Origin: a virus
Lineage: Duplodnaviria; Heunggongvirae; Uroviricota; Caudoviricetes
Strand: one strand, 5' to 3'
Length of the DNA: 64,000 bases
IMG/VR virus record: IMGVR_UViG_2690316068_000002
Shown: positions 32,865 through 60,773 of the stretch, piece by piece
Layout of the letters: each line of letters begins with the position of its first letter
Position numbering within the stretch: the first letter of the stretch is position 1
Position numbers and translations under genes: made by a program
The notes under the pieces: model-generated
Databases searched by the model: none
Told to the model about the DNA's origin: nothing
What the model saw: only the letters and a program-made list of their open reading frames with translations

Positions 32865-32965
32865 TATGCTGTCAGCGGTAATTGATAGTCTGTCAGCGGT
32901 TCACCGTATGCTGCCAACTGTTTTTGGTATTCTGTCAGCGGCAAATCAAGTATGCTGTCAGCGGT
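32865..32965. repeat. Origin iterons, upstream set (5 direct repeats, about 21-bp periodicity)
   Basis: TATGCTGTCAGCGGT and variants starting at about 32865, 32886, 32907, 32928, 32951. Confidence 0.85.
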
Positions 32966-32985
32966 TGAATGACAAAGGTGTCCAC

Positions 32986-34080
32986 ATGTCCACAAAAAAT
33001 AAAAAAGGTAAAAATAACAAAGAAGTAGAAGATAACATCGACAACTTTGAAGAAGGTTCCCTTGAATTGTACACAGGGGAACTTGTCCCTAATAGCAACA
33101 ATACAGTCCAACCAATTGCGTTGATGCGACTGGGGTTGTTCGTCCCCACGCTTAAGGGAACAAAATACAGTAAACGTAACAAGCCAAATGAGATCGATGC
33201 TTCAAAGGAGCTTGTCCAGCTCGAAGTAGCCCGTTCTGAAGGCTATTCCGATATCAAGATAACCGGCCCTCGCCTGGACATGGATCATGATTTCAAAACG
33301 TGGGTGGGCGTTGTGCGTTCGCTGGCAGAATACGGCGAACCTAATGGTCGTGTCGAGTTAAGCATCACGAAATTTGCGAAGTTTTGTGGCTATCCATCGT
33401 CACAGATCCGCAAAACACTCCGCGACCGGCTTACAAACAGTCTTTTGAAGATCATGCGTACAACTCTGTCTTTCCAGAGAACGTATGAAGAAAAGAACGT
33501 CGACGGCTCTAACAAGATCTCGCTTCTGATGGTGCACCTCATCAATAGCGTGGACTACAACGAGCAGAAAGATACGGTGGTGTTCTATGCAGAACCGAAG
33601 CTGGCCGAACTATATCGCTTTGACCATAAGGTTCTTTTGCAGTTAAAGGTTATCAATAAGCTACCACGCAAAGAAACAGCACAGGCTCTGTACACCTTCA
33701 TCGAAAGTCTTCCAACCAAGCCTGCGCCGGTATCGCTTGCTCGATTGCGTGCGCGACTCAATTTGAGTAGCAGGAATGTCAGCTCGCAGAATCAGACTAT
33801 ACGTAACGGCTTAAAAGCTCTCCAAGATTTGGGCTATCTCGAATACAGCGAGATTAAGCGTGGGCGGTCGATCTATATCCAGATTCACAGCCGCAATCCA
33901 AAACTCAAAGTCGCACCGCCAAAACCTGAAGACATCGAACCCAAAAAACCAGATGAGAAAGCTGGGGAAATTGATGCCAAACAGAACATTATCAACAAGA
34001 TAACCGAACTTTCGCAGAATTTGACGCCTGAAAATATCAAGATGATTGAGATCCTTTCCAATAGTCTCAAACTGCTTTGA
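32986..34080 (+). CDS. repA: Plasmid-type replication initiator (iteron-binding Rep)
   Basis: 364 aa from internal ATG 32986; flanked by iteron sets, DnaA box and GATC cluster. Family assignment by architecture and recalled similarity. Confidence 0.75.
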   Translation: MSTKNKKGKNNKEVEDNIDNFEEGSLELYTGELVPNSNNTVQPIALMRLGLFVPTLKGTKYSKRNKPNEIDASKELVQLEVARSEGYSDIKITGPRLDMDHDFKTWVGVVRSLAEYGEPNGRVELSITKFAKFCGYPSSQIRKTLRDRLTNSLLKIMRTTLSFQRTYEEKNVDGSNKISLLMVHLINSVDYNEQKDTVVFYAEPKLAELYRFDHKVLLQLKVINKLPRKETAQALYTFIESLPTKPAPVSLARLRARLNLSSRNVSSQNQTIRNGLKALQDLGYLEYSEIKRGRSIYIQIHSRNPKLKVAPPKPEDIEPKKPDEKAGEIDAKQNIINKITELSQNLTPENIKMIEILSNSLKLL

Positions 34081-37397: not shown

Positions 37398-38471
37398 TTA
37401 CTCTTCTACTGACTCGGTGGGGTTGTCTTTTGCTCTTCGGTCGTCGATTGCCTGCAAAGCCGCAATGATTTCAGCCAGTGGCTTCTCCCGATACATCTCG
37501 ACGATCTGCGATTTGGTGTATTTCTTGTCACCAATTTCAACTCGCCCGCTGGCGTTCTTTGGCAGGTATCCTTCTTCCAGCATGTACTCGACGAGCGATT
37601 CGATAACGTCGAGGCCACGAGTAGGATCGAAGTAGAATTTCCAGGTGCATTTGCCATACGGTGGTGCAACTTTGTTTTTGATGCATTCTGCGCCTACGTC
37701 CTGGCCGATCTTCTCTTTACCATCCTTCATCACCGATGCACCAAGACGGATACGTACAGAAGCGTAGAACTTCGGTGAATCTCCACCTGGCGACGTAGTA
37801 GGGTCGCCAAACATTACACCGATTTTTGTGCGAACCTGATTCAAGAAGATGATGCAGGCGTTGTATTTGCGTGCCCACAAAGCCAGAGTAGGGAAGTTCG
37901 CACTCGTCGCACGAGCCAGTGCCGTATTGTCGTTCATGTTTAGCTGATCTTTGTCTTTGGCAGTGCCTTCAGCCATCTTTTCGAACTTCTCGGCTTTGGA
38001 GTTCGGAACCATAGACGCAAGAGAGTCAGCCACGATACAGATTGGTGCTGATTCGGGGATAAGCTCTTCATCACGAACCAATTTAAGTATTGTGCCGATC
38101 AACTCTACAGAGTCTTCGAAGGTATCTGGCTGCTTGTATACCCACTGACCGTCATCCTCATCTGCGTTCAGGCCATTGGCGACAGCCAGGCCAACGTCAA
38201 AACTGTTTTCATGATCGAGGAATACCGCCAGACCATCTTGTTTTTGAGCGGAGATCATCGCTGCTGTTGCAAGGAACGTTTTCCCTGCACTTGGAGGACC
38301 GAATACTTCGACGATACGACCACATGGGAAGCCGCCATCGTAACGACCAGAAATAGCTTTGTTTAACGGTGGAAAGCCTGTATCAATCCAATGAGTTACT
38401 TTCTGAATTTCGTCGTTGCTACCGATTTTCTTTTTCAGAGCAAGTGCCAGTGCGGATTTTCCTTTTGCCAT
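37398..38471 (-). CDS. RecA-family recombinase
   Basis: 357 aa; Walker A GPPSAGKT; FLNQVRTKIGVMFGDP...KFYASVRI aligns to the RecA core. Confidence 0.85.
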   Translation of the reverse strand: MAKGKSALALALKKKIGSNDEIQKVTHWIDTGFPPLNKAISGRYDGGFPCGRIVEVFGPPSAGKTFLATAAMISAQKQDGLAVFLDHENSFDVGLAVANGLNADEDDGQWVYKQPDTFEDSVELIGTILKLVRDEELIPESAPICIVADSLASMVPNSKAEKFEKMAEGTAKDKDQLNMNDNTALARATSANFPTLALWARKYNACIIFLNQVRTKIGVMFGDPTTSPGGDSPKFYASVRIRLGASVMKDGKEKIGQDVGAECIKNKVAPPYGKCTWKFYFDPTRGLDVIESLVEYMLEEGYLPKNASGRVEIGDKKYTKSQIVEMYREKPLAEIIAALQAIDDRRAKDNPTESVEE

Positions 38472-38473
38472 GA

Positions 38474-38746
38474 TCAGGCTCCTTTTGTTTCGTTGATTCG
38501 TTTTAAAGCGGCGGATTCATCGAATACAATCGCATCGTGGTTAAGGAGTCTGGATACACGAGCGAGGATTTTTACGACCTGCTCGCTGACTAATCCAAAC
38601 TCGCGATCTGTCGCTTTCATTCCGGCAGCGCCTAGAATTGACGGCAGTGCGATGACAGCGTACTCACCGTGATAAAAGACAATCTCTTTTGCCAGTTGGG
38701 CAGGGGTGGTTGTAGCGCCATTGATAATCGATTTAAGCATTAGCAA
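38474..38746 (-). CDS. Hypothetical protein
   Basis: 90-aa ORF. Confidence 0.45.
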   Translation of the reverse strand: MLMLKSIINGATTTPAQLAKEIVFYHGEYAVIALPSILGAAGMKATDREFGLVSEQVVKILARVSRLLNHDAIVFDESAALKRINETKGA

Positions 38747-39735
38747 TACCTTTCGAATGGAAGAACAAACACTTCAAGGTCTTCAAGGAACGAACGGAAA
38801 TTCAGCTCGTAGCACAGTTGCTCGAATGCTTTCACGTCACGATTGCCTTTGATTGTTTCGATTTCGGTAGGCGGAAACTTCGTCTCAATCAGGTTCATTA
38901 GCGTGATGTTTCTCTTGAACGCTTCGAGCATTCGACAGCCTGTTTTCTCGTTGAAGGCATTCTTCGCTAGTTTGTTGAAGGCGGTCTTATGACGCCCTTT
39001 ATTAACCACGATTGAGCCGTCGTTGATGCCGCGTACCATCGTTGCGACACTTCCCCATTCATGCAGCAGCTCTTTCGCACCGCCAGCACCAATGCCACCA
39101 ACACCGCTAATGTTGTCCGAGTTATCGCCTTGTAATGCTTTTGCTTCCAAAAATGCGCGAGGCGTGGCGAATCCTGTCAGCTCCGCAAATTGCTCAAAAT
39201 TAACCTGCTTGTTTTTGGCGTCTTCACGCAGGCTTACCCAGCTTACGTTTTCACGAACTAACTGAAGCCAGTCGCTATCGCCTGTTAACAGATAGATGTG
39301 TTCAACGGTTGGCTGCGGTGCCATGCGGGATACCAGCAGCCCGGCCAGATCATCCGCTTCTGCATCTTTTGCAATGAGTTGGGTAACTCCAAGCGCGGTC
39401 ATCATTTTGAGGATGTATGGCTTCTGGATAGCAAAGCCTTCCTTCATCTTTTTCATATCAGGATCGTCGTCGCGATTTGCTTTGTAGTCCGGGTAAAAGT
39501 CGCGACGCTTGTCACTAAATCCATCCCAAAGAATCATAGGTCGGGCATGGAGGATGGAGGCATAACGACGGACGTTCTTAACAAAGCCGAAAGCAGCCTG
39601 TACTTCCATTTCGCCGTTGTGCAATTTGTCAGATTGTTGATGGTAATAACCCAGGCTATTGCCATCTACGAAGAGATAATTCACCGGTACATTCCTTCCA
39701 AAAAGTAAGGCGTCCGTAGACGCCTTACTGGTCAC
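38740..39735 (-). CDS. 5'-3' exonuclease / flap endonuclease (T4 RNase H-like)
   Basis: 331 aa; N-terminal YLFVDGNSLGY motif and acidic clusters. Confidence 0.75.
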   Translation of the reverse strand: MTSKASTDALLFGRNVPVNYLFVDGNSLGYYHQQSDKLHNGEMEVQAAFGFVKNVRRYASILHARPMILWDGFSDKRRDFYPDYKANRDDDPDMKKMKEGFAIQKPYILKMMTALGVTQLIAKDAEADDLAGLLVSRMAPQPTVEHIYLLTGDSDWLQLVRENVSWVSLREDAKNKQVNFEQFAELTGFATPRAFLEAKALQGDNSDNISGVGGIGAGGAKELLHEWGSVATMVRGINDGSIVVNKGRHKTAFNKLAKNAFNEKTGCRMLEAFKRNITLMNLIETKFPPTEIETIKGNRDVKAFEQLCYELNFRSFLEDLEVFVLPFERYC

Positions 39736-39744
39736 GTAATGGGA

Positions 39745-40773
39745 TTACAGAGAGTCCAGCTCTCTCAGTAGGTCATCCAGACCTTCATCTTCCGTCGCAG
39801 ATGCGGTTGCTACAGATGTCGCTGCGACTGCTTCAGACTCTTTGACTGATACGGCAACGGCAGCGGAACTTGCCTCTGGTTTAAATTCAGTTTCAACGGC
39901 ACGGAGGATTTCTTCATCAACCAGACTGGTTGGTTCAGAAGCCGGTGTGTGCGCGGTTGCTACAGCCGTCGCTCCTTCTGTATGACCAGTGACAGAGCCA
40001 AATCCAGGTAGTGCCGCAGCCGATGTTTTCGCGGTTGAGGAAATTGCTGGTGCAGATGCTGCGGCAGTTGGTGCAGCGATGCCAATCAGACGACCCATAG
40101 TGCGAACTGTCGACAGAAGACGAGTTTCATCAGCCTGATTTGCGTATGCGATCAGATCATGCTGGGTGTTCCAGAATTTATCTTCGATATCGCCTTTGTA
40201 GACTTTACGCTTAGGCGAGACGTCATATTTGGTATCGCGACCAGAGCCAGTACGTTTAATCAGGAATGCGTAGCCTTCCTCTTTGCTCAGTGGATTGCCG
40301 ATATCATCAGCGATGTCTTCGGTGATTGCTTTGCAGATATCATCGAATACAGTAGACGGCAGCTCGATTAACTGGCATTTCTCAGCATCTGCGAAATCCT
40401 CACGAGCAGAAAGAATGCCGTTGACCAGGTAGCGAGGAGTGGCACGCATTTGACCGATGCGTTCTTCCATTGCTTTGTTACCCTTGTGACGAGCGCGACC
40501 TTCCATAACCATTTCGCATAGCTGACAAGCGCGACCGTGAGTATGTTGCTCACAAATATAAGCGTTGGTTGCTTCTTTACCTTCCTCGTTCTGATACTTA
40601 ACGTAGTGCATACCGAAAGTCTGGAAGAACTTACCGTTTGGGTCGTCTTTATTCGGGAAGATGCGGATATAGTTGACGCCGTCTTTTAAGCGAGTCAGAT
40701 CAACGTTGTTGCCACGTTTGGCGGCAATGTCTTCACGAGTTTTGTTAAGCAAATCAAGTAATGTCTTAGACAT
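39745..40773 (-). CDS. Single-stranded DNA-binding protein, gp32-like
   Basis: 342 aa; H-x-C-x-C-x2-C zinc site (HTHGRACQLCE), Ala/Ser-rich linker, acidic C-terminal tail DDLLRELDSL. Confidence 0.7.
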   Translation of the reverse strand: MSKTLLDLLNKTREDIAAKRGNNVDLTRLKDGVNYIRIFPNKDDPNGKFFQTFGMHYVKYQNEEGKEATNAYICEQHTHGRACQLCEMVMEGRARHKGNKAMEERIGQMRATPRYLVNGILSAREDFADAEKCQLIELPSTVFDDICKAITEDIADDIGNPLSKEEGYAFLIKRTGSGRDTKYDVSPKRKVYKGDIEDKFWNTQHDLIAYANQADETRLLSTVRTMGRLIGIAAPTAAASAPAISSTAKTSAAALPGFGSVTGHTEGATAVATAHTPASEPTSLVDEEILRAVETEFKPEASSAAVAVSVKESEAVAATSVATASATEDEGLDDLLRELDSL

Positions 40774-40890: not shown

Positions 40891-41322
40891 TCAACGGGGA
40901 GTAATAAAGCGTTCAGAGCCTAATCGCTCTAATTCAACGATGGCCATCTTTGACGCCTGAACGATCATGTCTCGGCGATGCGAAAAGGCGGCGACAGCAT
41001 GTTTGTATATGTCTGCGATGTGCCGTGCTTCATCCAACTTCTGCCGTTTAGACAGATACTGTGGGTTTGTTTTAACCTTAGCGTCCAGTACAGACTCGTT
41101 GAACTTAATGCCGTTCATACTCAAGTTCTTACGCTCTGTGTCGTATAGCTTTGCTTCAACAGCTTCAAGGTTAAGTTTTGCCTCTGCGACATCTCGATCT
41201 GCCTGCGCTAGTTTTGACCCATACTCCATTAAAAGCCGTGGCTGTTTACGCCATACTTCCTCAAGGTTGTCGCGGTCGAACTCCAGATCGGCCATGATTT
41301 TAGAAAAAATATCAGTGTTCAC
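40891..41322 (-). CDS. Hypothetical coiled-coil protein (UvsY-like mediator possible)
   Basis: 143 aa; adjacent to SSB and RecA-like genes. Confidence 0.35.
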   Translation of the reverse strand: MNTDIFSKIMADLEFDRDNLEEVWRKQPRLLMEYGSKLAQADRDVAEAKLNLEAVEAKLYDTERKNLSMNGIKFNESVLDAKVKTNPQYLSKRQKLDEARHIADIYKHAVAAFSHRRDMIVQASKMAIVELERLGSERFITPR

Positions 41323-41801: not shown

Positions 41802-41861
41802 TTTCAAGGCGGCATTAGCCGCCTTTTGCAGAAACTGTCCAACTATCTTCAAAGGAAAACT

Positions 41862-42425
41862 ATGGCGCTTTATAACTTCACTCTGACGCTCTCAGGCGTA
41901 TCGTATGAGACGGAAGGACTGGAAGACGCGCTGTACCAAAACGGCTGTGACGATGCGCTAATTTGCGCATATGGAAACTCCGTCTATGTAGAATTTGACC
42001 GCGAAGCACAATCACTTGATGCAGCTATCGCATCTGCGGTCGACAATATTGAATCAGCCGGTATCGGTGCAATTGTTGAATCCGTCGACTCGGCTCTTGT
42101 GGGCTTAAGCGATATCGCGGAACTGACAGACCTGTCTCGCCAGGCAGTGGCGTTGCTCAAAGACGGTAAGCGCGGAAGCGGCGACTTCCCTTGCCCTGTA
42201 CAACGCATAAAAGGCCAGTCTCCTCTCTGGGATTGGGCTGATGTGGCTGAATGGCTCATGAATAACGGACGACTTAAAGAGGGCGATCAAATTGTCCAAA
42301 ATGCCCGAACTTTGAGTAAATGGAATCTGGCGCTTCGAAACAGCGTCTCGAAAGATTTCAACGAAATAGAGCAAATTGCGGAGAAACTGATTAAACGCCG
42401 CAAAGATATTGCGAAATGCGCATAA
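41862..42425 (+). CDS. HTH-containing protein, possible antitoxin or regulator
   Basis: ATG at 41862 with AAGGA Shine-Dalgarno; C-terminal LSDIAELTDLSRQAVALL HTH-like segment. Confidence 0.4.
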   Translation: MALYNFTLTLSGVSYETEGLEDALYQNGCDDALICAYGNSVYVEFDREAQSLDAAIASAVDNIESAGIGAIVESVDSALVGLSDIAELTDLSRQAVALLKDGKRGSGDFPCPVQRIKGQSPLWDWADVAEWLMNNGRLKEGDQIVQNARTLSKWNLALRNSVSKDFNEIEQIAEKLIKRRKDIAKCA

Positions 42426-42428
42426 TGA

Positions 42429-42448
42429 TGCCCGCCAATTGGCGGGCA
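42429..42448 (+). terminator. Terminator-like hairpin
   Basis: gcccgcc-aatt-ggcgggc. Confidence 0.4.
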
Positions 42449-42754
42449 TCTGTTCTCTGTAAAGGTGTCTGGCATCGTCTGGTTCGTTAACGTTTACTAA
42501 ACCAATGGTGACAAAAATTAGTTATCTTTGAAAAATAAAGGTTGCATGAAAAGAAGGGGTATGCGTTAATAGCATCGTTGGTTTGCAAGACAGACCTTAT
42601 GTAAGCAGTTTTAGTAAAGCAGTCTCAGTTCAGTGTTATCTTCTGATTTCCCTTCTTCGTGAGTCTCCTCCTTAAGTGCCTAAGTAAGTCCCAATCTATA
42701 CAGATCAAATTCTCGCCGCACTATGTGGCTCACAAAATTAAGAAGGTAATATCT

Positions 42755-42970
42755 ATGTCTAATAAAATGACTGGTTTAGTAAAATGGTTTAACTCTGATA
42801 AAGGCTTTGGCTTTATTTCTCCTGCTGATGGCAGTAAAGATGTTTTTGTACATTTTTCGGCAATTCAGAGTAATAATTTCCGCACTTTGGAAGAAGGCCA
42901 GCAGGTCGAATTCTCTATCGAGAATGGGGCTAAAGGCCCAGCAGCAGCAAATGTCGTTGCTCTAAGTTGA
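42755..42970 (+). CDS. Cold-shock protein, CspA family
   Basis: 71 aa from ATG 42755; [13 protein letters not shown]...[13 protein letters not shown]-track start 42659 lies in the long leader. Confidence 0.9.
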
Positions 42971-43273: not shown

Positions 43274-46200
43274 TTACTTATTTATTGTCTCCGCGATATC
43301 AGCCAGAATGGCCTCCAGTCGCTCTCCTTCTTCCGGTCGGAAGTACAGGATATTCGGGTTAAATCCGTAGAAGACGGTTGCATCAAGCTCTGGGAAGTAC
43401 TCCTTACGACCAATCAGATCTGATGGTTTACTCTTATTGTTAAATAGTGCGGTTGAACGACTACCACACGTCAAAATGTAGGTCGGACGCACCAGATTGA
43501 TCTCTTCACGCATAAAGTCGGTGAACTGGCCGATCTCGTCTTTGGTGTAGTCTTTTTCTTTGTCTTTAACCTTCTTGCAAACGCCTGTGACATAGAGATC
43601 GCCCATGCGTAAATCTCCAGCCGTCAATAGCTTGGCCTTAAAGTCGTCGTATCCGTTCTCCATGAAGTAACCGGTTCGAGCATCATTGCCGTTCGCATTG
43701 TCCAGAATGATCATGATTTTCGGCTTAATACCAATGTTGGGGCGGATTAGTTCATCACCTAAGCCCATTTCAGCCGCCATCCGTGTCATGAGCACGTTAA
43801 TCTCAGCCGAACGTTTGGGGTTCATCTCAAACGGACGTGAGGCTTTAACTGCGTCTATGACAAGGTTTCCCATCAATTCAGCCTGGTCGCGTAGGCGCTC
43901 TGGATCAGTTGCTGGCAGACTACCTGGCTCGATGGATGCAAACGCCCCTACTTTTTGCAGCGATTCGCGCACTCGACTATTACAGGCACGTTTCTCGACA
44001 GCTTCTTCGAATTGCGCCAGTGACTCGAATTTGCCGCCAACTTTTTCTCGCGCTCTCATGATGGCTTGGCAGCCATTCTCAGAACACCCCTTCACAGCAG
44101 AGAAGGGCGCATACAGCACCTGGCTGCCATCTTCAAGCGTGCGGATCTCGATTCGGTTAGATGACACGTTAACGTCTGGTGGCAATACGCGAATACCATA
44201 GGTCAGCGCATCTTTAACCAGCCCCTGGTGTTTATCTTCGCCAAGAATAGTGAGAGCAGCAGCGAAAAACTCTGCGGGATAATGAGTTTTCAACCACATA
44301 GATTGATAACTGATTAAGGAGTAGGCAACAGAGTGTGATTTATTGAACTGGTAGGCACCATTTTTTTCGAATGCGGTCCAGATCTCCTTCGCTTTCATCT
44401 CTGATAGCCCTGGATGTGACGCTGTAACGCGTACTGCGTTTATAGGTAGTTTTGCGCCGTGCTCAAGTGCCTCTTCGACAGTTTTCAGAGTTCCGTCTTC
44501 GCATTTAAAATGTTCCGCACGGTGAATGCGCTGTGTAGTGCCATCTTCCAGCTCAACGTCTATCCAGCCAGCTTGAGCCTGAACGATGAACTTCTCGCCC
44601 ATGCTCTTCATTTTTTCCATGTTCTTCTTACCGATTGCGGAACGCACACCGTCAGCTTCAGCCATTGTGAAGCCGGCAAGCAATCGAGTCGCGTTCATCG
44701 TCTGTTCCTGATAGAGAATCACGCCATTTGTTTCCGCGGTAAGTTCATCAAGAACGGGGTGTAATGATTCCGGCGTCATAAAGCCTTTGGCGACAGAAAC
44801 ATAGTCGTCCAACATGCCGGATTGGATCGGGCCAGGTCGGAAGAGTGCGGTCGTGGCGACAACGGTTTTAAAGCTCATTGGCTCAATGCCACCGCCTAGA
44901 TCTTTAAGCAGCTTGCGCATGGGGCCGGACTCCAGCTGGAATACGCCCTGTGTATACCCTGCAGCAAAACCATCCAGCACCTTGCGATCTTCAAGAGAAA
45001 TGGCATCAAGATTGATATCTTCACCTGTGTTCTCTTTTATGTAGCGTTTTGCACTATCGAGCAAATCGAGAGTTGCCAGGCCAAGCACGTCCAGCTTAAT
45101 TAGGCCCATAGCCTCGCAGTAACGCTTGTCAAATGCGATACAACGCGCGTCACCACGGCGCTCAACCGGTGTACGTTCTGTCAGAGGAACACCTGCTACA
45201 ATCATCCCTGCCGCATGTCTACCAAAGCCACGCATAAGGCTTTGTAACTTGCAGGCTGCATTGAATGCATCAGGATATTTTGTTGCGTATTTGTCGAGAC
45301 TTGCCAGTTGTTCGCGCAGCTCTTCCAATGGAAGGCTATCATCCTCGACGTTCTTCAGTTCTTTTGATACCGCCATATCTGCGGACTCCACACCATAAAT
45401 ACGAGCGGTGTCACGTAGTGCAGAGGCTGCGCCCAGGTAGGTGAAGTTCGGAATGCCTGCAACGTAATCTTCGCCGTAGCGTTCATTCAGATACTCGATC
45501 ACCTCATGGCGACGTGCCTGGCTGAAGTCCAAGTCCGCATCCGGCAAGTCGAGACGCTCAGGGTTGATGAAACGCTCAAACAGAAGACCGTGACGGATTG
45601 GGTCGACGTTGGTTATGCCTATGCACCACGCCACCAGAGAACCGGCAGAGGAACCACGACCAGGCCCGACAGGAATGCCAGTTTCACGGCTGTGATTCAT
45701 CAGATCGCGTACCATCAGGAAGTAACCACAAAATCCCAGGCGAGTCAGCGTGTTCATTTCGTACTTTAGCCGCTCAACATAAACCCTGTTCTCAGAAGCA
45801 GGTGGTGTGTATCCAAACTCTTTTGTGGTAAGACGTTTACGCAGCCCTGCAACAGCCAGTTTCATCAGCGTTGCAGGTTCGTCGTCTGCCATCTTGGGCA
45901 GTGCTGGTGGCAATTCATGCCAGCGCCATGTGCAGGCATCGATAATGGAGTCCTGCGTTGTTGAGGCCATTGCAGCTGTTACCGGCACATCCATGCGAAC
46001 GGAGAAGGCTTTAAGCGCCTCAAGGAGATGGCGACGACCATTGATGGCGTTATCTCGCTGGTGGGGGATACGCAGACGATGCGGCTGGTCGATTTTTATG
46101 TTGTTCGTAACCATGTGCGCAATGTCTTTAATGTCTGCATCGTCGATCGATTCGTAATAAGCGGGATAGAACGCTACTGGCTCTATTTTCAGTGCGCTGG

Positions 46201-46792
46201 CTACTTTCATCGCTCGGACGTTAATCTGGTCGTAGAATGGGGTAGGGTGCGGATAAACCACGCTATAGAAGTTGTCTTTCCCGCCCGCTGTAATCAGTGA
46301 GCTTATGATTTTTGCAAAATCGTTGCGTTGGAACACGCTACCGATGTCGGAAGTGAGCAGGATGATGTTGCCTTTGGCATATGTAGAAACCAACTGTTCG
46401 AGCGAGAGACGCGGTACAAAGTAGAACTGTTCTCGTGTGTTGGCCACCGTCATTAGTTCGCAGATGTCGCGATATCCTTGCTCATTTTTAATTAGAGCGG
46501 TAAACGAGTAGTTACGTCCCCGCTCTAATGATTCCATACATCTCATAGATTCTTTAGCAAGTTTAGCCCGGTGCTCGTATGTGGGATCATCAACGATATT
46601 TAGTTTCACACCACAAATAACCGCCATGTCGTCACCAGCGGCACGTTGTAGTGGAATAACGCTCGCAATATTCATGCTATCTGCTGAAATTACAGCGGTG
46701 TAGCCAGCTTCTCTGGCAATCTTCACCGCGTTTTCTGCTTTTAGAGCCGACTCCCCAAGTGAGAAGTCAGTTCGAACCATCAGTGCCTTCAT
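43274..46792 (-). CDS. DNA polymerase III alpha-type (DnaE family) replicative polymerase
   Basis: 1172 aa; N-terminal PHP domain; GPGRGSSAGSLVAWCIGITNVDP motif; conserved ribosome-binding context. Confidence 0.9.
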   Translation of the reverse strand: MKALMVRTDFSLGESALKAENAVKIAREAGYTAVISADSMNIASVIPLQRAAGDDMAVICGVKLNIVDDPTYEHRAKLAKESMRCMESLERGRNYSFTALIKNEQGYRDICELMTVANTREQFYFVPRLSLEQLVSTYAKGNIILLTSDIGSVFQRNDFAKIISSLITAGGKDNFYSVVYPHPTPFYDQINVRAMKVASALKIEPVAFYPAYYESIDDADIKDIAHMVTNNIKIDQPHRLRIPHQRDNAINGRRHLLEALKAFSVRMDVPVTAAMASTTQDSIIDACTWRWHELPPALPKMADDEPATLMKLAVAGLRKRLTTKEFGYTPPASENRVYVERLKYEMNTLTRLGFCGYFLMVRDLMNHSRETGIPVGPGRGSSAGSLVAWCIGITNVDPIRHGLLFERFINPERLDLPDADLDFSQARRHEVIEYLNERYGEDYVAGIPNFTYLGAASALRDTARIYGVESADMAVSKELKNVEDDSLPLEELREQLASLDKYATKYPDAFNAACKLQSLMRGFGRHAAGMIVAGVPLTERTPVERRGDARCIAFDKRYCEAMGLIKLDVLGLATLDLLDSAKRYIKENTGEDINLDAISLEDRKVLDGFAAGYTQGVFQLESGPMRKLLKDLGGGIEPMSFKTVVATTALFRPGPIQSGMLDDYVSVAKGFMTPESLHPVLDELTAETNGVILYQEQTMNATRLLAGFTMAEADGVRSAIGKKNMEKMKSMGEKFIVQAQAGWIDVELEDGTTQRIHRAEHFKCEDGTLKTVEEALEHGAKLPINAVRVTASHPGLSEMKAKEIWTAFEKNGAYQFNKSHSVAYSLISYQSMWLKTHYPAEFFAAALTILGEDKHQGLVKDALTYGIRVLPPDVNVSSNRIEIRTLEDGSQVLYAPFSAVKGCSENGCQAIMRAREKVGGKFESLAQFEEAVEKRACNSRVRESLQKVGAFASIEPGSLPATDPERLRDQAELMGNLVIDAVKASRPFEMNPKRSAEINVLMTRMAAEMGLGDELIRPNIGIKPKIMIILDNANGNDARTGYFMENGYDDFKAKLLTAGDLRMGDLYVTGVCKKVKDKEKDYTKDEIGQFTDFMREEINLVRPTYILTCGSRSTALFNNKSKPSDLIGRKEYFPELDATVFYGFNPNILYFRPEEGERLEAILADIAETINK

Positions 46793-46976
46793 GTGTTTTT
46801 ACCTTTCTGGTTTTTTTGATTTTGTCATTTGGGAAGCCTACGAACTTCCCATGCATCGAAATCGCAACTTCTTTTGCTGATTGGTGACAATCGGGCTTGT
46901 CTGGACACACCAGACAAGCCTTACCAGTTTCAGAAGCAGCGATAAGAGAGCCGAAACATCCTTTACGCACGATCAA
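46767..46976 (-). CDS. Small Cys-containing protein (possible zinc ribbon)
   Basis: 69-aa ORF between CobS-like and DnaE genes; overlaps DnaE start by 26 nt. Confidence 0.25.
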   Translation of the reverse strand: MIVRKGCFGSLIAASETGKACLVCPDKPDCHQSAKEVAISMHGKFVGFPNDKIKKTRKVKTHEGTDGSN

Positions 46977-48208
46977 CCAAATATTTTTTGAACAACTTCA
47001 CGAGCCGCTTGTGCAGAAGCTGAAGGGAGTTTGTTAATGAAAGAACGCTCAATACCTGTCACAAAGTCGCCTCGCATCATTCCAATCTTGGCCGACAACA
47101 AAAGTTCACGAGGGCCAATTGGCTGACTGATAAGGTGTTCTTCGTATCCATCGCGAACGATACCGGCAAACTTAACCATCTTTTCTGCGTATTCATCCAC
47201 GATACCGGCATTTATCAACATGTTGATCTCTGCCTCTTTGCTCATGTATTTCACATTCGAAACGATGCCAAAACGCGAAAAGTTCGCGGCGTTCTGGATG
47301 TTTGTACCCTGGTACAAGCCGGTTTCATCACCAGATCCGTTCGTGTTGCCAGTGCCAATGAAAGCAAACCGTTCATGCGGAGTAATGCGACGCCATTCTG
47401 GAGTCGCCTCTTTGATGACCAACGCTTCACCTTCCAGCACTGGCTGATACACGCCAAGAATCTGTGGAAACGCAAAGTCGTATTCATCCGCGAGGTAAAC
47501 CCAGCCATGCTTCATTGCGAGCGCAAGCAAGCCAGGCTCGAAATACGTAGAGCCATCACGCGCCAGAATTTGTCCCGTAACATGAGCCTCTTCCATTGAT
47601 GCTGTATGTTGGGCACGGATTAACGGACGATTGAGCAAAGCACATAGTTGTGTAGGCAATGAAGATTTGCCTGTTCCTGCATGACCCCACAAATAGCCAG
47701 GTATGCCAAGTTCAAGCATCATGAAAATGTCTTTGATCAGTTCGAAGTCGCCATATACGTATCCCTTCTTCACTTCTGGAACGAACTCTGGAAACGGCGT
47801 ATTGACGTTGACGCTAACCATGAGCGGCGTCCCACGTTTTGTTCCGAGTTCTTTCACCGTTACATTTAGCAGTTCGTGAGCTGCGACCAGATCTGTCTTG
47901 TACTCAACTGTGCCTGTGTAGCCTGGGCTACTGGTCACGCCAGATGATTTGGCCATTTCGCTTTTTTGCTCGGCACGTTTAGCTTGAATTGCATCAAGTG
48001 CCTTTTTCGATAGCGTTGGCTCATCTGGAAACTGTGTTGTGTACATTTTCAGTACGGTGTCAGGATCGGCATCTTTTACTGACTCAGGAATGCCCTCGCA
48101 ATTACCATTGGCAACATGGGACTTAAAATAGTGAAATGATTTTCCGCACCACTTGCAAACAAGGTAATCAGAAGGATTTTTTTCATTTTGCAGTGCAGTA
48201 GTAGTCAT
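46973..48208 (-). CDS. AAA+ ATPase, CobS/MoxR-like
   Basis: 411 aa; Walker A GHAGTGKSS; FAFIGTGNTNGSGDETGLYQGT CobS-like motif. Confidence 0.6.
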   Translation of the reverse strand: MTTTALQNEKNPSDYLVCKWCGKSFHYFKSHVANGNCEGIPESVKDADPDTVLKMYTTQFPDEPTLSKKALDAIQAKRAEQKSEMAKSSGVTSSPGYTGTVEYKTDLVAAHELLNVTVKELGTKRGTPLMVSVNVNTPFPEFVPEVKKGYVYGDFELIKDIFMMLELGIPGYLWGHAGTGKSSLPTQLCALLNRPLIRAQHTASMEEAHVTGQILARDGSTYFEPGLLALAMKHGWVYLADEYDFAFPQILGVYQPVLEGEALVIKEATPEWRRITPHERFAFIGTGNTNGSGDETGLYQGTNIQNAANFSRFGIVSNVKYMSKEAEINMLINAGIVDEYAEKMVKFAGIVRDGYEEHLISQPIGPRELLLSAKIGMMRGDFVTGIERSFINKLPSASAQAAREVVQKIFG

Positions 48209-48303: not shown

Positions 48304-50412
48304 TCACTTCAAAATGATACGAGATAGTTCAGTAACTACAGATGAACCAAGACTATCAACGCTCGTTACCAGGGCATGATTTGAGTAAAATCTCTCCGGT
48401 GCGTCAGTCATGATGCCAATTGCCATCAAATCAATGTCAGTCTGCGTTTCAATTTGCTTCGCAACCGAACGCAAATGAGCGTCAAAACCTCTCCCAACAG
48501 CCCACGGCTCGCCATCGCTCAGAACAAGCATGATCTTCCTGTCCTCCATGCGACCGGAAAATAACGATGCAAGGCTGGCTATGCTTTCACCATCCACGTT
48601 ATTAAGAAGTGGGAATGTGTAGCCTACGCACCCCATACGTGAGCGAACTTCGCGAGAATTTACCTTTTCATTCCAATTTTTGATGATAGGTAGCATTAAA
48701 GATTCAAAGCGAGAGAACTCATACTTGACAGCCTTAAGTTCTCCTGCCGCCATATGACTACCAAATGTAGTGAAGCCGGTGATAATGTTGGGAACATTTA
48801 TTCGATCAAGGGCATCGGCGATGGTATATGCACTTGCAAGAGCCAATTGTATCGTTATACCCCTCATTGAACCTGATAAATCAATCACTTGTTGAACACA
48901 GGCGTTAACGGCTTTAGATTCTTCTTTTTTACGAAACACGCGATCATCATTCATTGCTAATCTGTAGATACTAGAACCATGAATGCGCCCCCGACGCTGG
49001 CCCGGTATAAACTGAACTCTGTTTCTGCTTGCTATTGCTCGCTCCAGGTCTTTTGCCAGCGTCGACGAAACACCTGACGAAAGATGCTTTTCAATATATT
49101 TGTCGAAGAGCTGGTTGCCTTCAGGAACGATGCGATAGCGGCTGATTGGACATCCTCCTAAATCAATATCGGAGAATGTTTTAATAAGCCGTTTGATATG
49201 GGCTTCTGCCTGATCAATCGAGCCGATGAAGTCGTATGAGCGATTGTATGGCCTGTATTCGCTTTTCGAGCTTTCTGTTAACTCGCTTTTAATCGTTTCG
49301 GATAGAGCATCTTCTGTCATGCCTCCGACTTCATCTTCTATGCTATCCAGCTCCTCTAAAGCCTCTTCCAGACTCATTTTTGACGGAGTTGGAATATCTG
49401 AAGAGCCGTCTTCTGTCGTTTTTCTTTTTTCGTGGTCAGCGGTTAATGATTCTGACGCCGCGTTATCAGAAGCATCAGAATCTGATACCTCTTTATCATT
49501 TTCTGTATCATCGAATATTGTTTCTGATGATTCAGAATTATCTGAATCATCACTGTCGTTATTATCATGTTTGTGCTTACTGTGTGATTCTGATTTGATA
49601 GATTTGTGATTATCTAACGATGAGGGTGTCTCATGATCTTCGTTGTCTTCATTGTTTTCTCCAGAGGCATCCGTCTGGTCAGCGTCTGAAGGATCGGAAG
49701 TTTTTCCCGGAGCTGACTCCTTACCTTTGCTTTCACTTTCAGTGTCTTTGAGGATCTTAGCTATGGTCGCAGCCACCTTTACACAATCCTCGGTGCAAGA
49801 CATGTTACGCACGGCCACATCGATACCATGTTCTTTTAATAATGAAATTGGTTTCTCAATGACAGGCCAGTATTCATCCATGAAATCTACGAACGGTGCT
49901 TGGCCATCCCAGGCTCTTACAACCGGACAGAGAAAGAAGTTTAGAAAAAGCGCGCGCTGATCTTTGCCACAATAAGCAATAGCCTCTGAAGCCTTTGGTT
50001 TAAAGACTTTTTCGATTATAAGGCGCTGAGTTGCCATCAGATTACGTCTTGTTCCGTTAAAGACCTGACCCATTTTTCGCTCGATGAACACGTCTTCTAA
50101 GGCATTCCATAGCGACCAGGAAGGAACGCGTCCTTTTTCTCTCATTTTGTTGGACACACGAATATCGGTAAACAAAATGTGAGCAACCTCATGATCGAGA
50201 AATCCGCGCACAGCATTCATCAATGCCGGTGTTGCGTTATCCGGGATTGATGGGATGTTTACGAGAATTGGCTCTCCATCATCGTTATAGCGTACATAAG
50301 CGTCGTCCCCTCGTTCTGCAACAGGGATGTTTTTACCTGAAAGGAGAGCGACTACTCGTTTTACACTGTCACGGAAGTCCTGAACCTCTTTGATGGAACG
50401 TTTTTTAGACAT
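48304..50412 (-). CDS. von Willebrand factor A domain protein, CobT-like
   Basis: 702 aa; MIDAS motif DLSGSM; long Asp/Ser/Glu-rich region. Confidence 0.6.
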   Translation of the reverse strand: MSKKRSIKEVQDFRDSVKRVVALLSGKNIPVAERGDDAYVRYNDDGEPILVNIPSIPDNATPALMNAVRGFLDHEVAHILFTDIRVSNKMREKGRVPSWSLWNALEDVFIERKMGQVFNGTRRNLMATQRLIIEKVFKPKASEAIAYCGKDQRALFLNFFLCPVVRAWDGQAPFVDFMDEYWPVIEKPISLLKEHGIDVAVRNMSCTEDCVKVAATIAKILKDTESESKGKESAPGKTSDPSDADQTDASGENNEDNEDHETPSSLDNHKSIKSESHSKHKHDNNDSDDSDNSESSETIFDDTENDKEVSDSDASDNAASESLTADHEKRKTTEDGSSDIPTPSKMSLEEALEELDSIEDEVGGMTEDALSETIKSELTESSKSEYRPYNRSYDFIGSIDQAEAHIKRLIKTFSDIDLGGCPISRYRIVPEGNQLFDKYIEKHLSSGVSSTLAKDLERAIASRNRVQFIPGQRRGRIHGSSIYRLAMNDDRVFRKKEESKAVNACVQQVIDLSGSMRGITIQLALASAYTIADALDRINVPNIITGFTTFGSHMAAGELKAVKYEFSRFESLMLPIIKNWNEKVNSREVRSRMGCVGYTFPLLNNVDGESIASLASLFSGRMEDRKIMLVLSDGEPWAVGRGFDAHLRSVAKQIETQTDIDLMAIGIMTDAPERFYSNHALVTSVDSLGSSVVTELSRIILK

Positions 50413-56637: not shown

Positions 56638-56800
56638 CCTTAATCTCCTTCACTGTGTGGGTTATTTCTACAATGCGATAAATACGACCGCGTCGTTCTA
56701 TAACACCGCTTTTAATGTAGTCATTGATGCAACTGGACATCACCACAATACCGATTAAAAAACCAACCGCTAAAAATGCAATCATCCAGCCGAGCATCAT
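56621..56800 (-). CDS. Small membrane peptide (59 aa)
   Basis: Hand-translated; ATGA overlap with ligase stop; single TM. Below ORF-track cutoff. Confidence 0.3.
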   Translation of the reverse strand: MMLGWMIAFLAVGFLIGIVVMSSCINDYIKSGVIERRGRIYRIVEITHTVKEIKDDRIK

Positions 56801-58119
56801 TCTTTATCTCCGATTCGATCTTCTGTATCGCGTAAGCAACGCGGCCATTTCAGTCGTGGGTGGCGTAAGCTGCCGTCCGGTGTTTTCTCGTGACAATGAA
56901 CCTCGACAATACGACCACGGTACTTCTCTTTGTTGTTCCAGATCTCGTCCAGATATTTATGCTTAATGCCGCTCGCACGAACGATGACGCCGTTTTCAAG
57001 ACGAATAACAATTTTTCCAAGTGTGTTGGCAAAACCAGAGTCCGGGTCGCCCGGCTCAAAGTCGATAATTTCACCATCTTCTGAATCTTCGTCTTTTAAC
57101 TTCCACCAGCTGCGGGTACGTTTAAACTCGTAAACAGAGTTCGGATCTTTGCCCATCTCCCCTTCTTCGTTATCGTCCAGGCGTTTCATGAAGCGTTCGA
57201 TGAAGTCTTCGTGGCTATGGATGATGTAGAACGGATGTAGGTGAATGTCTTGCGCGTAGTCTTCACTGCGATCGTTTTTGAACAACGCCACGAGAATAGC
57301 CAGGCGCTCTTTCAGCTTCATACCTGTCTTTGCATACTCTTTGGATTTAGCCTGTGCCCGCCATTCCGGTAGGAAGAAGTCGAAAACATGATAAATAGCG
57401 CCAATTGCCTGCACGTTCTTTTTGCGCAATGCAGATACGGACTGGTTAAATGAACCGGCTGTTCCTTCACCATCGAAGAAGATGTGTTTGTGGCCTGAAA
57501 GTTTGCCTAATTCGAGCATGGCTGGCTTTAGGTGATCGAGAGACGTGATTGGATTACCAGTACGAGAAAGGAAGTTCACCTCTTCCTCGTCAACAATAAC
57601 CTCACAAATTACTCGCAAACCATCGAGCTTAAGGCTGCCAATCATCGGCCATTTGGCTTTAGGATTTGGCTTGAAGGGGTATTTGTCGCCTTTTTCTTTA
57701 TACGGTGACGCCAGCTGCACCTCAAATTTCGGAATGGGATTTTCAAAAACCTTGTTGCATAGGCTAATCCCAACGCCAGCTTTCGGATCTTTTAAGAGGA
57801 AACGACGGAACACGTCCTGCCCATCGGCGCACATTGACGCCACGATAGACTCAACAGCAGCTATTGCTGCGTTCCCCGTCAGCTCGCGAGAGGCCAGCTT
57901 ATTCAGTATATCAATGGCTTTTTCGTCACTTGGGACGGACTCACTAAGCGGCTCTGCCACTTTGTATTTCTTTACCCCAAAACGGATGAAAGGGTTGAGC
58001 ATCAATGAAACCATGCTTTGCTCGAAGTCATCCATGTTGGCCAATGCCTCTTTTTTTGCATTGGTTCCCATAGCTTTCATTTCGTCCAGCTTATGCTTAA
58101 GTGCGATCAACTTTTTCAT
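56797..58119 (-). CDS. ATP-dependent DNA ligase
   Basis: 440 aa; adenylation motif I KLDGLR. Confidence 0.8.
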   Translation of the reverse strand: MKKLIALKHKLDEMKAMGTNAKKEALANMDDFEQSMVSLMLNPFIRFGVKKYKVAEPLSESVPSDEKAIDILNKLASRELTGNAAIAAVESIVASMCADGQDVFRRFLLKDPKAGVGISLCNKVFENPIPKFEVQLASPYKEKGDKYPFKPNPKAKWPMIGSLKLDGLRVICEVIVDEEEVNFLSRTGNPITSLDHLKPAMLELGKLSGHKHIFFDGEGTAGSFNQSVSALRKKNVQAIGAIYHVFDFFLPEWRAQAKSKEYAKTGMKLKERLAILVALFKNDRSEDYAQDIHLHPFYIIHSHEDFIERFMKRLDDNEEGEMGKDPNSVYEFKRTRSWWKLKDEDSEDGEIIDFEPGDPDSGFANTLGKIVIRLENGVIVRASGIKHKYLDEIWNNKEKYRGRIVEVHCHEKTPDGSLRHPRLKWPRCLRDTEDRIGDKE

Positions 58120-59510: not shown

Positions 59511-60692
59511 TTATGATAGAGCCTTAATGCCCAAAACCTTGCTTTGCAACTCCAACTGTTTGGTATACGGTTTTGCCCGATAATAGGCTTTGATAATTTG
59601 TTCTGGCGTTGCACCGCCCGGGTCGAGTCCTTCCTCACCCAAACACGCAACTTTGACATTAAGACCGATACTGGTCAGTCGCCTGGCTGCGGCCATAGTG
59701 TTGCGTATAGCTTGCTTTTCACTATCCCACATCATGATCACATTACGTAACCCACGCGCCTTGAGCGTCAGGAACGCGCCTAACTGATCTTCTGCATCCT
59801 GAGTGGTGTTACCAGATAGATGCATCCCGAACGTTCCTATTGGTTCCACGTAATCACGTAATGTTTCTTCGTCAAAAATAGCTCGTTTAACCCCCATAAC
59901 ATCGAACGCCCCCTCACAGACAACTACAGTCTGTTTGCCGACTGCATTATGGCCGTTGTAGAGAAACTTACCTGAAGCTGGAAGTTGCATAGGAAAGAGG
60001 TAGCGGCGTTCTGCTGTACCGGTAATGTCTCGTCCCTGAAATGTCTTCATTACCCCATCCAGATCGTAAACCGGTATCAGTATTCGCATATCGAATATCT
60101 GTCCTTTAACCTGATCTGTATACGGATCTACATAAGCGTGCTTGCCTTCGACGCAGTATCGTAGGTCAAAATACTTTGCCATTTCAGGTGATATGTTTCG
60201 TTCAACCAGATAGTCTGGAAGACGGCCATCTATAGGAAGTTCGTAATGACGAGGGAGTGCAAGTGGTCCCTCTAACTCGACTGTGCTTGCAAGCACTATC
60301 TCTTCTTTCTTTGGTGCCCACCCCTGGGAAAGAAGGGCGTTCTGCACATATTCCTCGAACTGTCGTCGTGATTTGCCGCTGTAGTGCTTGAGGAAGACCA
60401 GCTTATTGAACTGAATCTCTTCGGGATGATCACCAGCAAAGCATTTGCCGACGCCACTGGTCAGATTGAAATATACCTTCCAGTTGGAGCTGCCGCATAC
60501 CGGACATTCCTTGATATTCACTTCACGACCGCGAGCACTCACGCCTCCACGTCGATAAACGATACCTTCAGTATCCAACCATTGTTCAAAATCTAATTCG
60601 GCAATTAGCTCTTTCAGCTCGCTCACGATAATTCCACTTTTAACAGGCAATATTGTGACCAACCTAAATGTTGATATAACATAAAGGCTCAT
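59511..60692 (-). CDS. DNA primase (zinc ribbon + TOPRIM)
   Basis: Start moved to ATG 60692 with conserved ribosome-binding context; CPVCGSS...C zinc ribbon; VVVCEGAFDVMG TOPRIM. Confidence 0.8.
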   Translation of the reverse strand: MSLYVISTFRLVTILPVKSGIIVSELKELIAELDFEQWLDTEGIVYRRGGVSARGREVNIKECPVCGSSNWKVYFNLTSGVGKCFAGDHPEEIQFNKLVFLKHYSGKSRRQFEEYVQNALLSQGWAPKKEEIVLASTVELEGPLALPRHYELPIDGRLPDYLVERNISPEMAKYFDLRYCVEGKHAYVDPYTDQVKGQIFDMRILIPVYDLDGVMKTFQGRDITGTAERRYLFPMQLPASGKFLYNGHNAVGKQTVVVCEGAFDVMGVKRAIFDEETLRDYVEPIGTFGMHLSGNTTQDAEDQLGAFLTLKARGLRNVIMMWDSEKQAIRNTMAAARRLTSIGLNVKVACLGEEGLDPGGATPEQIIKAYYRAKPYTKQLELQSKVLGIKALS

Positions 60693-60773
60693 GTGTTTTT
60701 CTTTTGTGGTTTGGCAAAAGAAAAGTTGTTTCACAAATGAATCAAGCGTGGAGGTGTTCTCCACGCTTATTTT

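Follow-up and report, generated by a model that had tools for sequence, protein, structure and literature searches.

A DnaE-type polymerase with a uracil-DNA-glycosylase-fold tail in the replication module of an SSU5-type phage-plasmid of Escherichia coli

The 64,000-nucleotide stretch of viral DNA analysed here (the window; IMG/VR virus record IMGVR_UViG_2690316068_000002) is an E. coli member of the well-known, heavily sequenced SSU5/pHCM2/pMT1-type group of phage-plasmids. One of its genes encodes a protein that by its sequence is a C-family, DnaE-type (Pol III alpha) polymerase, and profile searches and a structural model indicate that the OB fold and tau-binding domain of bacterial DnaE have been replaced in it by a domain with the fold of the family-4 uracil-DNA glycosylases (UDG). 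The best explanation of the whole, which we consider reasonably probable, is an element-encoded replication module in which a separate exonuclease would proofread in trans, the host would provide the sliding clamp, and the UDG-like domain would serve as a DNA-binding module. The gene set and the polymerase architecture are already known from annotation and the literature. An earlier note on this DNA, made from the sequence alone, recognised neither that the element is a well-known SSU5-type phage-plasmid nor that the DnaE-UDG architecture has been published (PMC3919608), and the novelty that it implied was overstated.

Results

The polymerase and its C-terminal domain

The gene and the domains of its product are as follows.

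43274..46792, minus strand: dnaE-type DNA polymerase gene, 1172 amino acids (aa), with a C-terminal UDG-like domain (ATG start; Pfam; phmmer against the Protein Data Bank, PDB)
46268..46777, minus strand: PHP domain, aa 6-175, with a degenerate metal site (Pfam, E 6e-13)
45080..45868, minus strand: palm/nucleotidyltransferase core, aa 309-571, DNA_pol3_alpha (PF07733, E 1e-73)
44573..45073, minus strand: fingers, aa 574-740, DNA_pol3_finger (PF17657, E 1e-43)
43928..44197, minus strand: (HhH)2/beta-binding-domain region, aa 866-955, HHH_6 (PF14579, E 2e-16)
43277..43825, minus strand: UDG family-4-fold domain, aa ~990-1172 (family profile, AlphaFold2 model, Foldseek)

The nearest solved proteins are the Pol III alpha subunit of Thermus aquaticus (E 7e-122), DnaE1 of Mycobacterium tuberculosis (2e-113) and the E. 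coli subunit (8e-109; phmmer, PDB). The catalytic aspartate triad is intact, with D418, D420 and D568 aligning with E. coli D401, D403 and D555. The open reading frame (ORF), its Pfam domains and the PDB matches bear out the earlier description of a Pol III alpha-type polymerase with a PHP domain. A PolC-type enzyme was rejected, as the PHP domain holds no inserted exonuclease and PolC structures match weakly (E 1e-11). Nor is the protein a DnaE1 of the E. coli type, since it has no OB fold and no tau-binding domain. The label 'bacterial-style' given to it earlier suits the DnaE core and its triad; it does not suit the UDG fold that stands for the OB and tau domains, the degenerate PHP domain, or the partner exonuclease, which has no epsilon C-terminal segment.

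Between the polymerase and E. coli K-12 DnaE, identity is 30% over aa 4-956 and nothing aligns beyond. The polymerase is no closer to E. coli DnaE than to that of Thermus; the Thermus and Mycobacterium enzymes in fact outscore the E. coli one. When 5426 complete E. coli genomes were searched, the gene was found in 244 (4.5%) at 250 places, every one on a plasmid and 0 on a chromosome. A recent copy of the host dnaE, the origin that the earlier note had named as damaging to its own interpretation, was rejected on this identity, these scores and this distribution, and with nothing beyond the shared family in its favour we regard it as extremely improbable.

The PHP domain was aligned with that of M. 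tuberculosis DnaE1, in which we take H14, H16, D23, H48, E73, H107, C158, D226 and H228 to be the nine metal ligands. The corresponding positions of the window polymerase are M5, R7, E14, S39, K63, a gap, S148, P210 and Y212, so that eight of the nine ligands are lost and E14 alone is a conservative change. The domain is not of the proofreading Thermus/Mycobacterium type and is more degenerate than that of E. coli, and the HxH motif is gone in nearly the whole UDG-tailed family. Loss of eight of the nine ligands makes intrinsic PHP proofreading implausible.

Residues ~957-1172 have no counterpart in E. coli alpha. The Pfam UDG match for the window protein alone is weak (E 0.006); a profile of 38 family members matches structures of family-4 UDGs (4zbx, 1e-20; 1vk2, 4e-18; 1ui0, 8e-15) and of UdgX (~1e-12). 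An AlphaFold2 model of the domain, with a predicted local distance difference test score (pLDDT) of 93.7, finds 1l9g, 4zbx and 1ui0 as its best Foldseek matches (template-modelling score 0.69-0.80). The protein has the composition of the DnaE-UDG variant, in which a PF03167-type UDG takes the place of the OB fold and C-terminal domain. A DnaE with this swap, described as archaeal-type UDG, was reported as an additional polymerase of some Yersinia pestis and Salmonella enterica strains (Timinskas 2014, PMC3919608), and DnaE-UDG is also mentioned in the GenBank note of Rhizobium phage RHEph10.

Across the fused family the canonical UDG residues are replaced. The GE(A/G)PG motif reads FDCPN (LDNAN in the window), the stacking Phe is Leu or Met (Met in the window), the uracil-reading Asn is an invariant Thr, and the HPS of motif B is NP(N/G/A) (NPN in the window). 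The Fe-S CxxC is kept in many relatives; the SSU5 clade, window included, is without the cluster cysteines. An active family-4 UDG was rejected for the window protein, as motif A, the stacking Phe, the reading Asn, HPS and the four Fe-S cysteines are all substituted or absent. All members of this polymerase family nevertheless have the domain, and the residues that stand in for the canonical ones are conserved in turn (invariant T, P, G and E). Conservation of the fold with rewired motifs suggests that the UDG fold is under selection for something besides canonical uracil excision, and on the alignments and model it most likely serves as a DNA-binding or template-sensing module and not as a glycosylase.

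DnaE homologues of any kind were detected in 1332 of 50,697 phage records (tblastn), mainly in phages of Pseudomonas, Mycobacterium, Streptomyces and Gordonia, and 31 of them are Escherichia phages. The earlier note called the split into polymerase and proofreader uncommon; by this count DnaE-type polymerases are a minority among phages, if not a rare one, in agreement with a survey in which C-family polymerases are rare among viruses and occur in phages only (PMC4889955).

A separate exonuclease as candidate proofreader

The standalone epsilon-like exonuclease of the earlier note is encoded far from the polymerase.

17768..18322, minus strand: DEDDh 3'-5' exonuclease, 184 aa (Pfam RNase_T, E 5e-23)

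Besides the RNase_T match, the protein shares 31% identity with E. coli DnaQ in the exonuclease domain, and the five catalytic DEDDh residues (D9, E11, D99, H154 and D159) are all present in its Exo I, II and III motifs, which confirms the assignment. In epsilon, the C-terminal segment carries the clamp motif and the PHP/alpha-binding tail. The window protein ends at aa 184, its alignment with DnaQ stops at DnaQ residue 176, and it has no such segment, so it is not an epsilon of the E. coli type. It has a conserved C-terminal tail of its own, GFFKLPSEI in the window and GLYKSPADI in Pseudomonas phage ZY21, and the two proteins are 41% identical overall, tail included.

Homologues of the exonuclease (E<=1e-10) are present in exactly 31 of the 50,697 phage records and so is the UDG-like domain (E<=1e-5), with identical accession lists. 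All of these genomes are of 84-122 kb and they come from seven host genera (Rhizobium 10, Klebsiella 6, Pseudomonas 6, Escherichia 4, Salmonella 2, Stenotrophomonas 2 and Xanthomonas 1). The exonuclease subfamily is absent from the other ~1300 DnaE-encoding phages. The order common to the phages that have it is DnaB, primase, ligase, CobT, CobS, DnaE-UDG, flap endonuclease (FEN), RecA, SbcD/C, ribonucleotide reductase (RNR), ThyA, dihydrofolate reductase (DHFR) and exonuclease, and this whole order is kept in the lytic Pseudomonas phage ZY21 and in RHEph10; Xanthomonas phage JGB6 was left out of the synteny comparison because its record is fragmented. As the module order is shared, the 31/31 co-occurrence is compatible with physical coupling and does not prove it. 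We infer, most strongly from this phyletic pattern, that the exonuclease may proofread for the polymerase in trans.

Alternatively, the exonuclease could be a stand-alone nuclease of recombination, DNA-end processing or RNA/oligonucleotide turnover, the polymerase then working without proofreading or borrowing the host epsilon. Consistent with this, the RNase_T fold is common to many non-replicative nucleases, the two genes are 25 kb apart, and the alpha-binding segment and clamp motif of epsilon are missing. However, such a nuclease would not be expected to follow the polymerase in 31 of 31 records and to be absent from ~1300 other DnaE-encoding phages, nor to be conserved over its full length between enterobacterial and Pseudomonas elements, and with a dead PHP domain a trans proofreader would be needed for faithful copying of a ~108-kb genome. 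We judge this alternative to be unlikely, if still one to be reckoned with.

Clamp, clamp loader and a clamp-binding-like motif

The earlier note saw no clamp or clamp loader in the window, and none was found. Among ~75 proteins, encoded by the window and by the 45 kb of the 96%-identical phage PhiR41_1 that lie outside it, there was no Pfam or PHROGs match to a beta clamp, PCNA, gp45, delta, delta', gamma or RFC. The annotations of PhiR41_1 and of the distantly related phage ZY21 name neither a clamp nor a loader. The linker of the polymerase carries a motif that resembles those through which clamps are bound.

43871..43885, minus strand: clamp-binding-like motif Q970-A-E-L-M974, in an 'R-L-R-D-Q-x-E-L-M' stretch (family alignment)

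It belongs to the linker motif that is conserved best in the family, R-x-[KR]-D-Q-x-E-L-[ML]-P-G, which lies between the HhH region and the UDG-like domain and reads RLRDQAELMGNL in the window with its core at Q970-M974. A Q-x-x-[LMFIV]-[LMFIVW] pattern is present at that position in 77 of 94 family segments. QAELM resembles QADMF at the equivalent place of E. coli alpha, which we take to be the internal clamp-binding motif of that protein, and it is a putative binding motif for the host beta clamp.

A possible replication scheme

The remaining replication genes named in the earlier note were all recovered by Pfam, the primase with a weak match.

60774..62114, minus strand: DnaB-like replicative helicase, DnaB_C (PF03796, E 3.5e-13)
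59511..60764, minus strand: DnaG/Toprim-like primase (DNAG_N and Toprim_2 of Pfam match weakly; named primase in the PhiR41_1 and ZY21 annotations)
56797..58119, minus strand: ATP-dependent DNA ligase (PF01068, E 4e-13)
39745..40773, minus strand: gp32-type single-stranded DNA-binding protein (SSB) (PF08804, E 2e-66)
38740..39735, minus strand: flap endonuclease/5'-3' exonuclease, FEN (PF02739 and PF01367)
14429..15073, minus strand: RNase H (PF00075, E 1e-45)

In lytic growth the element would assemble its own replisome from the DnaB-like helicase, primase, gp32-type SSB, DnaE-UDG polymerase, DEDDh proofreader and ligase, with FEN and RNase H removing primers. The polymerase, its PHP domain dead, would be unable to proofread alone and the exonuclease would supply this activity in trans. 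Processivity would depend on the beta clamp of the host, which the host loader would load and the polymerase would capture by its QAELM motif. Having no tau-binding domain, the enzyme would stand apart from the host holoenzyme, uncoupled from the host clamp-loader-helicase hub, with the element's own proteins as partners. The UDG-fold domain, which occupies the chain position of the OB fold, probably binds DNA and could be a template-strand sensor or a tracking module.

Several points weigh against this scheme. The co-occurrence of exonuclease and polymerase may reflect common descent of the entire module, their genes are, as noted, 25 kb apart, and since the epsilon-type PHP-binding segment is absent, the two proteins could touch only in some other way. 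Clamps are difficult to recognise from sequence, a divergent one could be missed by Pfam and PHROGs, and the replication region includes several proteins of 190-270 aa with no assigned function. The proposed clamp binding rests on one short motif. Finally, certain UDG families are active although their motif B contains Asn, so the substitutions do not prove that glycosylase activity has been lost.

The element and its relatives

The polymerase gene is 96% identical at the nucleotide level to those of Escherichia phages CMS-2020a and PhiR41_1, 93% to that of Cyrano, 85% to that of Salmonella phage SSU5 and 80% to those of Klebsiella phage-plasmids. PhiR41_1, a complete genome, and the window have matching gene order throughout, and the remainder of PhiR41_1, outside the window, holds phage structural genes and ParA. 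Nucleotide identity, gene order and plasmid-only occurrence in E. coli together place the window among the SSU5-type phage-plasmids, to which it shows similarity and synteny, and a Rep3-type initiator is present.

32866..34080, plus strand: Rep3-type plasmid replication initiator (PF01051, E 5e-9)

Replication in the plasmid mode probably starts from this initiator and uses host enzymes. The C-terminal domain of the polymerase occurs in 976 of 72,556 plasmid records (Klebsiella 346, Escherichia 220, Acinetobacter 137, Enterobacter 91, Yersinia 63 and Salmonella 49), 862 of which are non-mobilizable, and among the matches listed nearly all of the plasmids are ~100-120 kb in size. A 99%-identical protein is already held by NCBI under the name 'DNA polymerase III subunit alpha'.

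The plasmid character of the element raises the possibility that the polymerase is an accessory repair or translesion enzyme, similar to DnaE2, and that host Pol III replicates the element in both plasmid and lytic modes. The Rep3-type initiator and a UmuD-like gene on the element are in keeping with such a role, and plasmid-borne C-family polymerases are mostly DnaE2 (PMC3919608). However, the DnaE-UDG variant was not assigned to DnaE2 by Timinskas et al. (PMC3919608), the polymerase is embedded in a complete replisome and nucleotide-supply module, and no ImuA/ImuB-like partners were seen. Moreover, the same module is found in Pseudomonas phage ZY21 (genus Nickievirus), which has no plasmid-type initiator or integrase in the 100 kb examined. 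We therefore consider a translesion role to be very unlikely and continue to favour a replicative polymerase served by the element's own module.

Over the polymerase gene, Escherichia CMS-2020a, PhiR41_1 and Cyrano, Klebsiella pJN2-26 and Salmonella SSU5 show 85-96% nucleotide identity and gene order is alike; the window differs from its SSU5-type relatives by mosaicism. Its exonuclease is only 83% identical to that of PhiR41_1 and 87% to that of the Klebsiella GArcari elements, against 98% identity between the polymerases of the window and PhiR41_1. The window also has an extra ~1.9 kb downstream of the polymerase gene that is not at that position in PhiR41_1. This stretch (41826..42970, plus strand), between the polymerase and a 143-aa weakly UvsY-like gene, holds two plus-strand ORFs, for an uncharacterised protein of 199 aa and, as judged by eye, a CspA-like cold-shock protein; Klebsiella pJN2-26 has a cold-shock gene at the same position.

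A CobS/CobT-like pair next to the polymerase

Two genes upstream of the polymerase encode a CobS/CobT-like pair.

46973..48208, minus strand: CobS-like AAA+ (AAA_5) ATPase, immediately upstream of the polymerase (Pfam)
48304..50412, minus strand: CobT-like VWA/MIDAS protein, partner of the CobS-like protein (PF06213 and PF11775)

A CobS-like gene adjoins the UDG-tailed dnaE in loci L009, L012 and L017 and in phages ZY21 and RHEph10, and the CobT-CobS-dnaE adjacency is kept at 35-54% polymerase identity among enterobacterial, Pseudomonas, Rhizobium and metagenomic elements. In L017 the CobS-like gene is present and the CobT position is taken by a 688-aa ORF with no Pfam match on record. No CobN is encoded in the element. 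A cobalamin role fits poorly here, because the RNR of the element is of class Ia and E. coli, to our knowledge, has no aerobic cobalamin pathway. The published idea is that viral cobST hijacks the host CobN and so raises cobalamin (PMC8651126). A literature search found no paper linking cobS/cobT with a phage Pol III alpha; from the gene arrangement, a replication-related role of the pair is possible.

Such a role enters an explanation in which processivity is achieved without the host clamp, through the UDG fold as a DNA-tracking module like vaccinia D4-A20, through the CobS/CobT-like pair as an accessory or loading factor, or through both. The universal presence of the UDG-fold domain with its conserved substituted residues is compatible with this, as are the adjacency of CobT, CobS and dnaE across host genera and the lack of an encoded clamp or loader, and D4-A20 is a precedent in its service to the E9 polymerase (PMC4889955). 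The conserved clamp-binding-like motif between the HhH region and the UDG-like domain speaks against such a scheme, however, and cobST pairs are widespread in tailed viruses without this polymerase (PMC8651126). Clamp-independent processivity seems to us unlikely, and use of the host beta clamp remains the preferred reading.

Between the CobS-like gene and the polymerase stands a 69-aa Cys-rich ORF (CLVCPDKPDC; 46767..46976, minus strand) that shares 26 nt with the start of the polymerase gene. This ORF falls in the conserved phrog_6337, a group of unknown function, and is hypothetical in the SSU5 annotation.

An intein-like relic and two-piece polymerases

Between the fingers and the (HhH)2 region the polymerase carries an insertion.

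44411..44569, minus strand: 53-aa in-frame insertion, aa 742-794, with an IntN-like part (742-782) and an IntC-like part (783-794) (alignments, profile search)

The insertion is confined to the SSU5 clade; neither E. coli DnaE nor Thermus DnaE nor any other unsplit UDG-tailed relative contains it. When a profile of the insertion and the corresponding tails was compared with all PDB sequences, DnaE inteins of the split cyanobacterial type were the top real matches (7qil, E 1.4e-4; Npu, ~1e-3; Ssp, 0.3), the alignment spanning intein residues ~60-104, and BLASTP of the insertion against the Npu intein gave an E of 4e-4. For an AlphaFold2 model of the 60-aa relic (pLDDT 70) the top 13 Foldseek matches were all inteins, at E values of 0.06-0.3 that are not significant alone. 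Pfam identified no intein family in the insertion even at E<=10, and the sole recurrent weak match, to the SH3-like Myosin_N, was judged spurious. By these comparisons the insertion looks like the relic of a split intein. It begins G742-W743, TxxH is replaced (H757..E760), and there is no Cys1 and no HN with a downstream nucleophile. A functional intein was rejected on the absence of these splicing blocks, which indicates a non-splicing relic.

In many relatives dnaE is divided into two ORFs, broken exactly at the insertion site.

L006:2944-7196, L017:3988-7611 and L018:1295-5407: two-piece dnaE loci
P0099, P0111, P0114 and P0121-P0255: proteins of two-piece dnaE

These come from Klebsiella, Enterobacter, Acinetobacter and metagenomes, and the pieces are of ~787 and ~389 aa. 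In Klebsiella phage vB_KpnS_p4727 a 787-aa N piece and a 389-aa C piece are separated by an HNH/NUMOD4 homing endonuclease gene; in a 107-kb contig (L017) the pieces are adjacent with an 84-bp gap and no endonuclease, and in a third contig a 184-aa ORF stands between them. The UDG-like domain has 144 matches among 1.84 billion representative proteins. About 40 of these are full-length fusions, and at least 26 are C pieces of ~380-410 aa, from diverged clusters, that all start with a conserved MK[IV]xx[IV]xxxxDG[ML] head. The existence of many diverged two-piece versions with a conserved head implies that the two-piece polymerase is functional.

The insertion in the window corresponds to the tail of an N piece and the head of a C piece, fused in frame. 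From the alignments, the most parsimonious history would be that dnaE was fractured long ago and its halves were joined again in the SSU5 clade; the opposite order of events is also conceivable. The two-ORF dnaE of the relatives is like the 'fractured genes' described by Dassa (2009, PMC2677866) in having intein-derived sequence at the break and a free-standing homing endonuclease or none. In contrast to those genes and to the split DnaE inteins of cyanobacteria, the intein parts here are truncated (~41 and 12 aa) and cannot splice, and unlike in fractured genes the dnaE halves of the window are fused in frame. The insertion site is ~20 residues upstream of the cyanobacterial DnaE intein site.

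Inteins also occur in RecA of this group. The 357-aa RecA of the window (37398..38471, minus strand) has none; that of PhiR41_1 (L019:99-2438), otherwise 100% identical, has a 422-aa intein in the P-loop (GK|CVTADT...SNGIISHN|TF) with LAGLIDADG-like sequence. Presence in one and absence from the other suggest that inteins are active in this phage group. In the database proteins P0097, P0103 and P0118 a dnaE N piece that ends within the relic runs on into the final residues of the RecA intein, followed by the RecA C-extein. These joined proteins could stem from genuine deletions of ~5 kb between sequences of intein origin, or they could be chimeras made in assembly.

Taken together, the UDG fold, the exonuclease, the CobS/CobT-like pair and the relic can be given a more ambitious joint reading, that of a distinct minimal C-family replicase. 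In it the rewired UDG fold would take over the role of the OB and tau modules, as a template-base sensor or a D4-like tracking element serving processivity, and a tail-anchored exonuclease would stand in for epsilon. The adjacent CobS/CobT-like pair would be a dedicated assembly or loading factor of the polymerase and not a cobalt chelatase, and the non-splicing split-intein relic would act as a non-covalent clasp joining the halves of two-piece polymerases. We offer this combination tentatively and give it only a small chance of being correct.

Comparison with known systems

The closest known system is DnaE-UDG ('DnaEX') of the Y. pestis plasmid pMT1 and of Salmonella pHCM2-type plasmids, which has the same architecture of PHP domain, Pol3 core, (HhH)2 and family-4 UDG (PMC3919608). 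The window polymerase is the E. coli member of this variant with no substantive difference, and the same gene family is found on Yersinia and Salmonella plasmids at 90-93% identity in the C-terminal domain. Timinskas 2014 (NAR, PMC3919608) cites Aravind & Koonin 2000 for DnaE-UDG; it gives no function for the UDG domain and makes no mention of the intein relic, the split forms, the clamp-like motif or the co-occurring exonuclease. The polymerase is not discussed by Pfeifer et al. 2021, a 2026 preprint on phage-plasmid copy number treats a different family, and no study of SSU5-type phage-plasmid replication was found in the literature searched.

With the E. coli Pol III core and beta clamp the window system shares a C-family polymerase, an inactive PHP domain, a separate DEDDh exonuclease and, after the HhH region, an internal motif that is clamp-binding-like in sequence. 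It differs in having no OB fold, tau-binding domain or theta, in an exonuclease without clamp motif and alpha-binding tail, in the extra UDG fold of the polymerase, and in a clamp and loader that are not encoded by the element. Vaccinia E9 with A20-D4 offers another parallel, as a UDG-fold protein is tied to a replicative polymerase that has no ring clamp of its own. However, E9 is of the B family and the window polymerase of the C family, and D4 is a separate, active, family-1-like protein, whereas the domain here is fused, of family 4 and rewired. In function, the likeness to D4-A20 is a speculation by analogy.

SSU5-type phage-plasmids are common in clinical Enterobacteriaceae and carry resistance genes. 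Their polymerase is a natural experiment, a C-family replicase without OB fold, tau link, clamp of its own or epsilon-type tether, and could reveal the role of a UDG fold in fusion with a polymerase. The relic, together with the recurrent two-piece dnaE, is relevant to the question of how essential genes persist when mobile elements fracture them, and the linkage of cobST to dnaE bears on the function of viral cobST genes.

Other genes and minor observations

Pfam further identified RecA and SbcC/SbcD-like proteins in the window. Ten unknown proteins of the replication module and its surroundings were compared with PHROGs, which assigned a RuvC-like resolvase (26198..26767) and, by a weak match, a UvsY-like protein (40891..41322); the other eight received no function. 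A class Ia RNR, ThyA and DHFR were assigned by length and by synteny with an annotated relative. Two genes at the window edge stand outside the replisome module.

1095..2195, plus strand: Mrp/NUBPL-type P-loop NTPase (Pfam ParA/NUBPL, E 2e-102; ORF assigned through the PhiR41_1 annotation)
2233..2622, minus strand: UmuD-like gene (PhiR41_1 annotation)

In one E. coli plasmid (NZ_JBWDPU010000001.1) an IS100 is inserted in the UDG-tailed dnaE, and PGAP names the downstream fragment 'uracil-DNA glycosylase family protein'.

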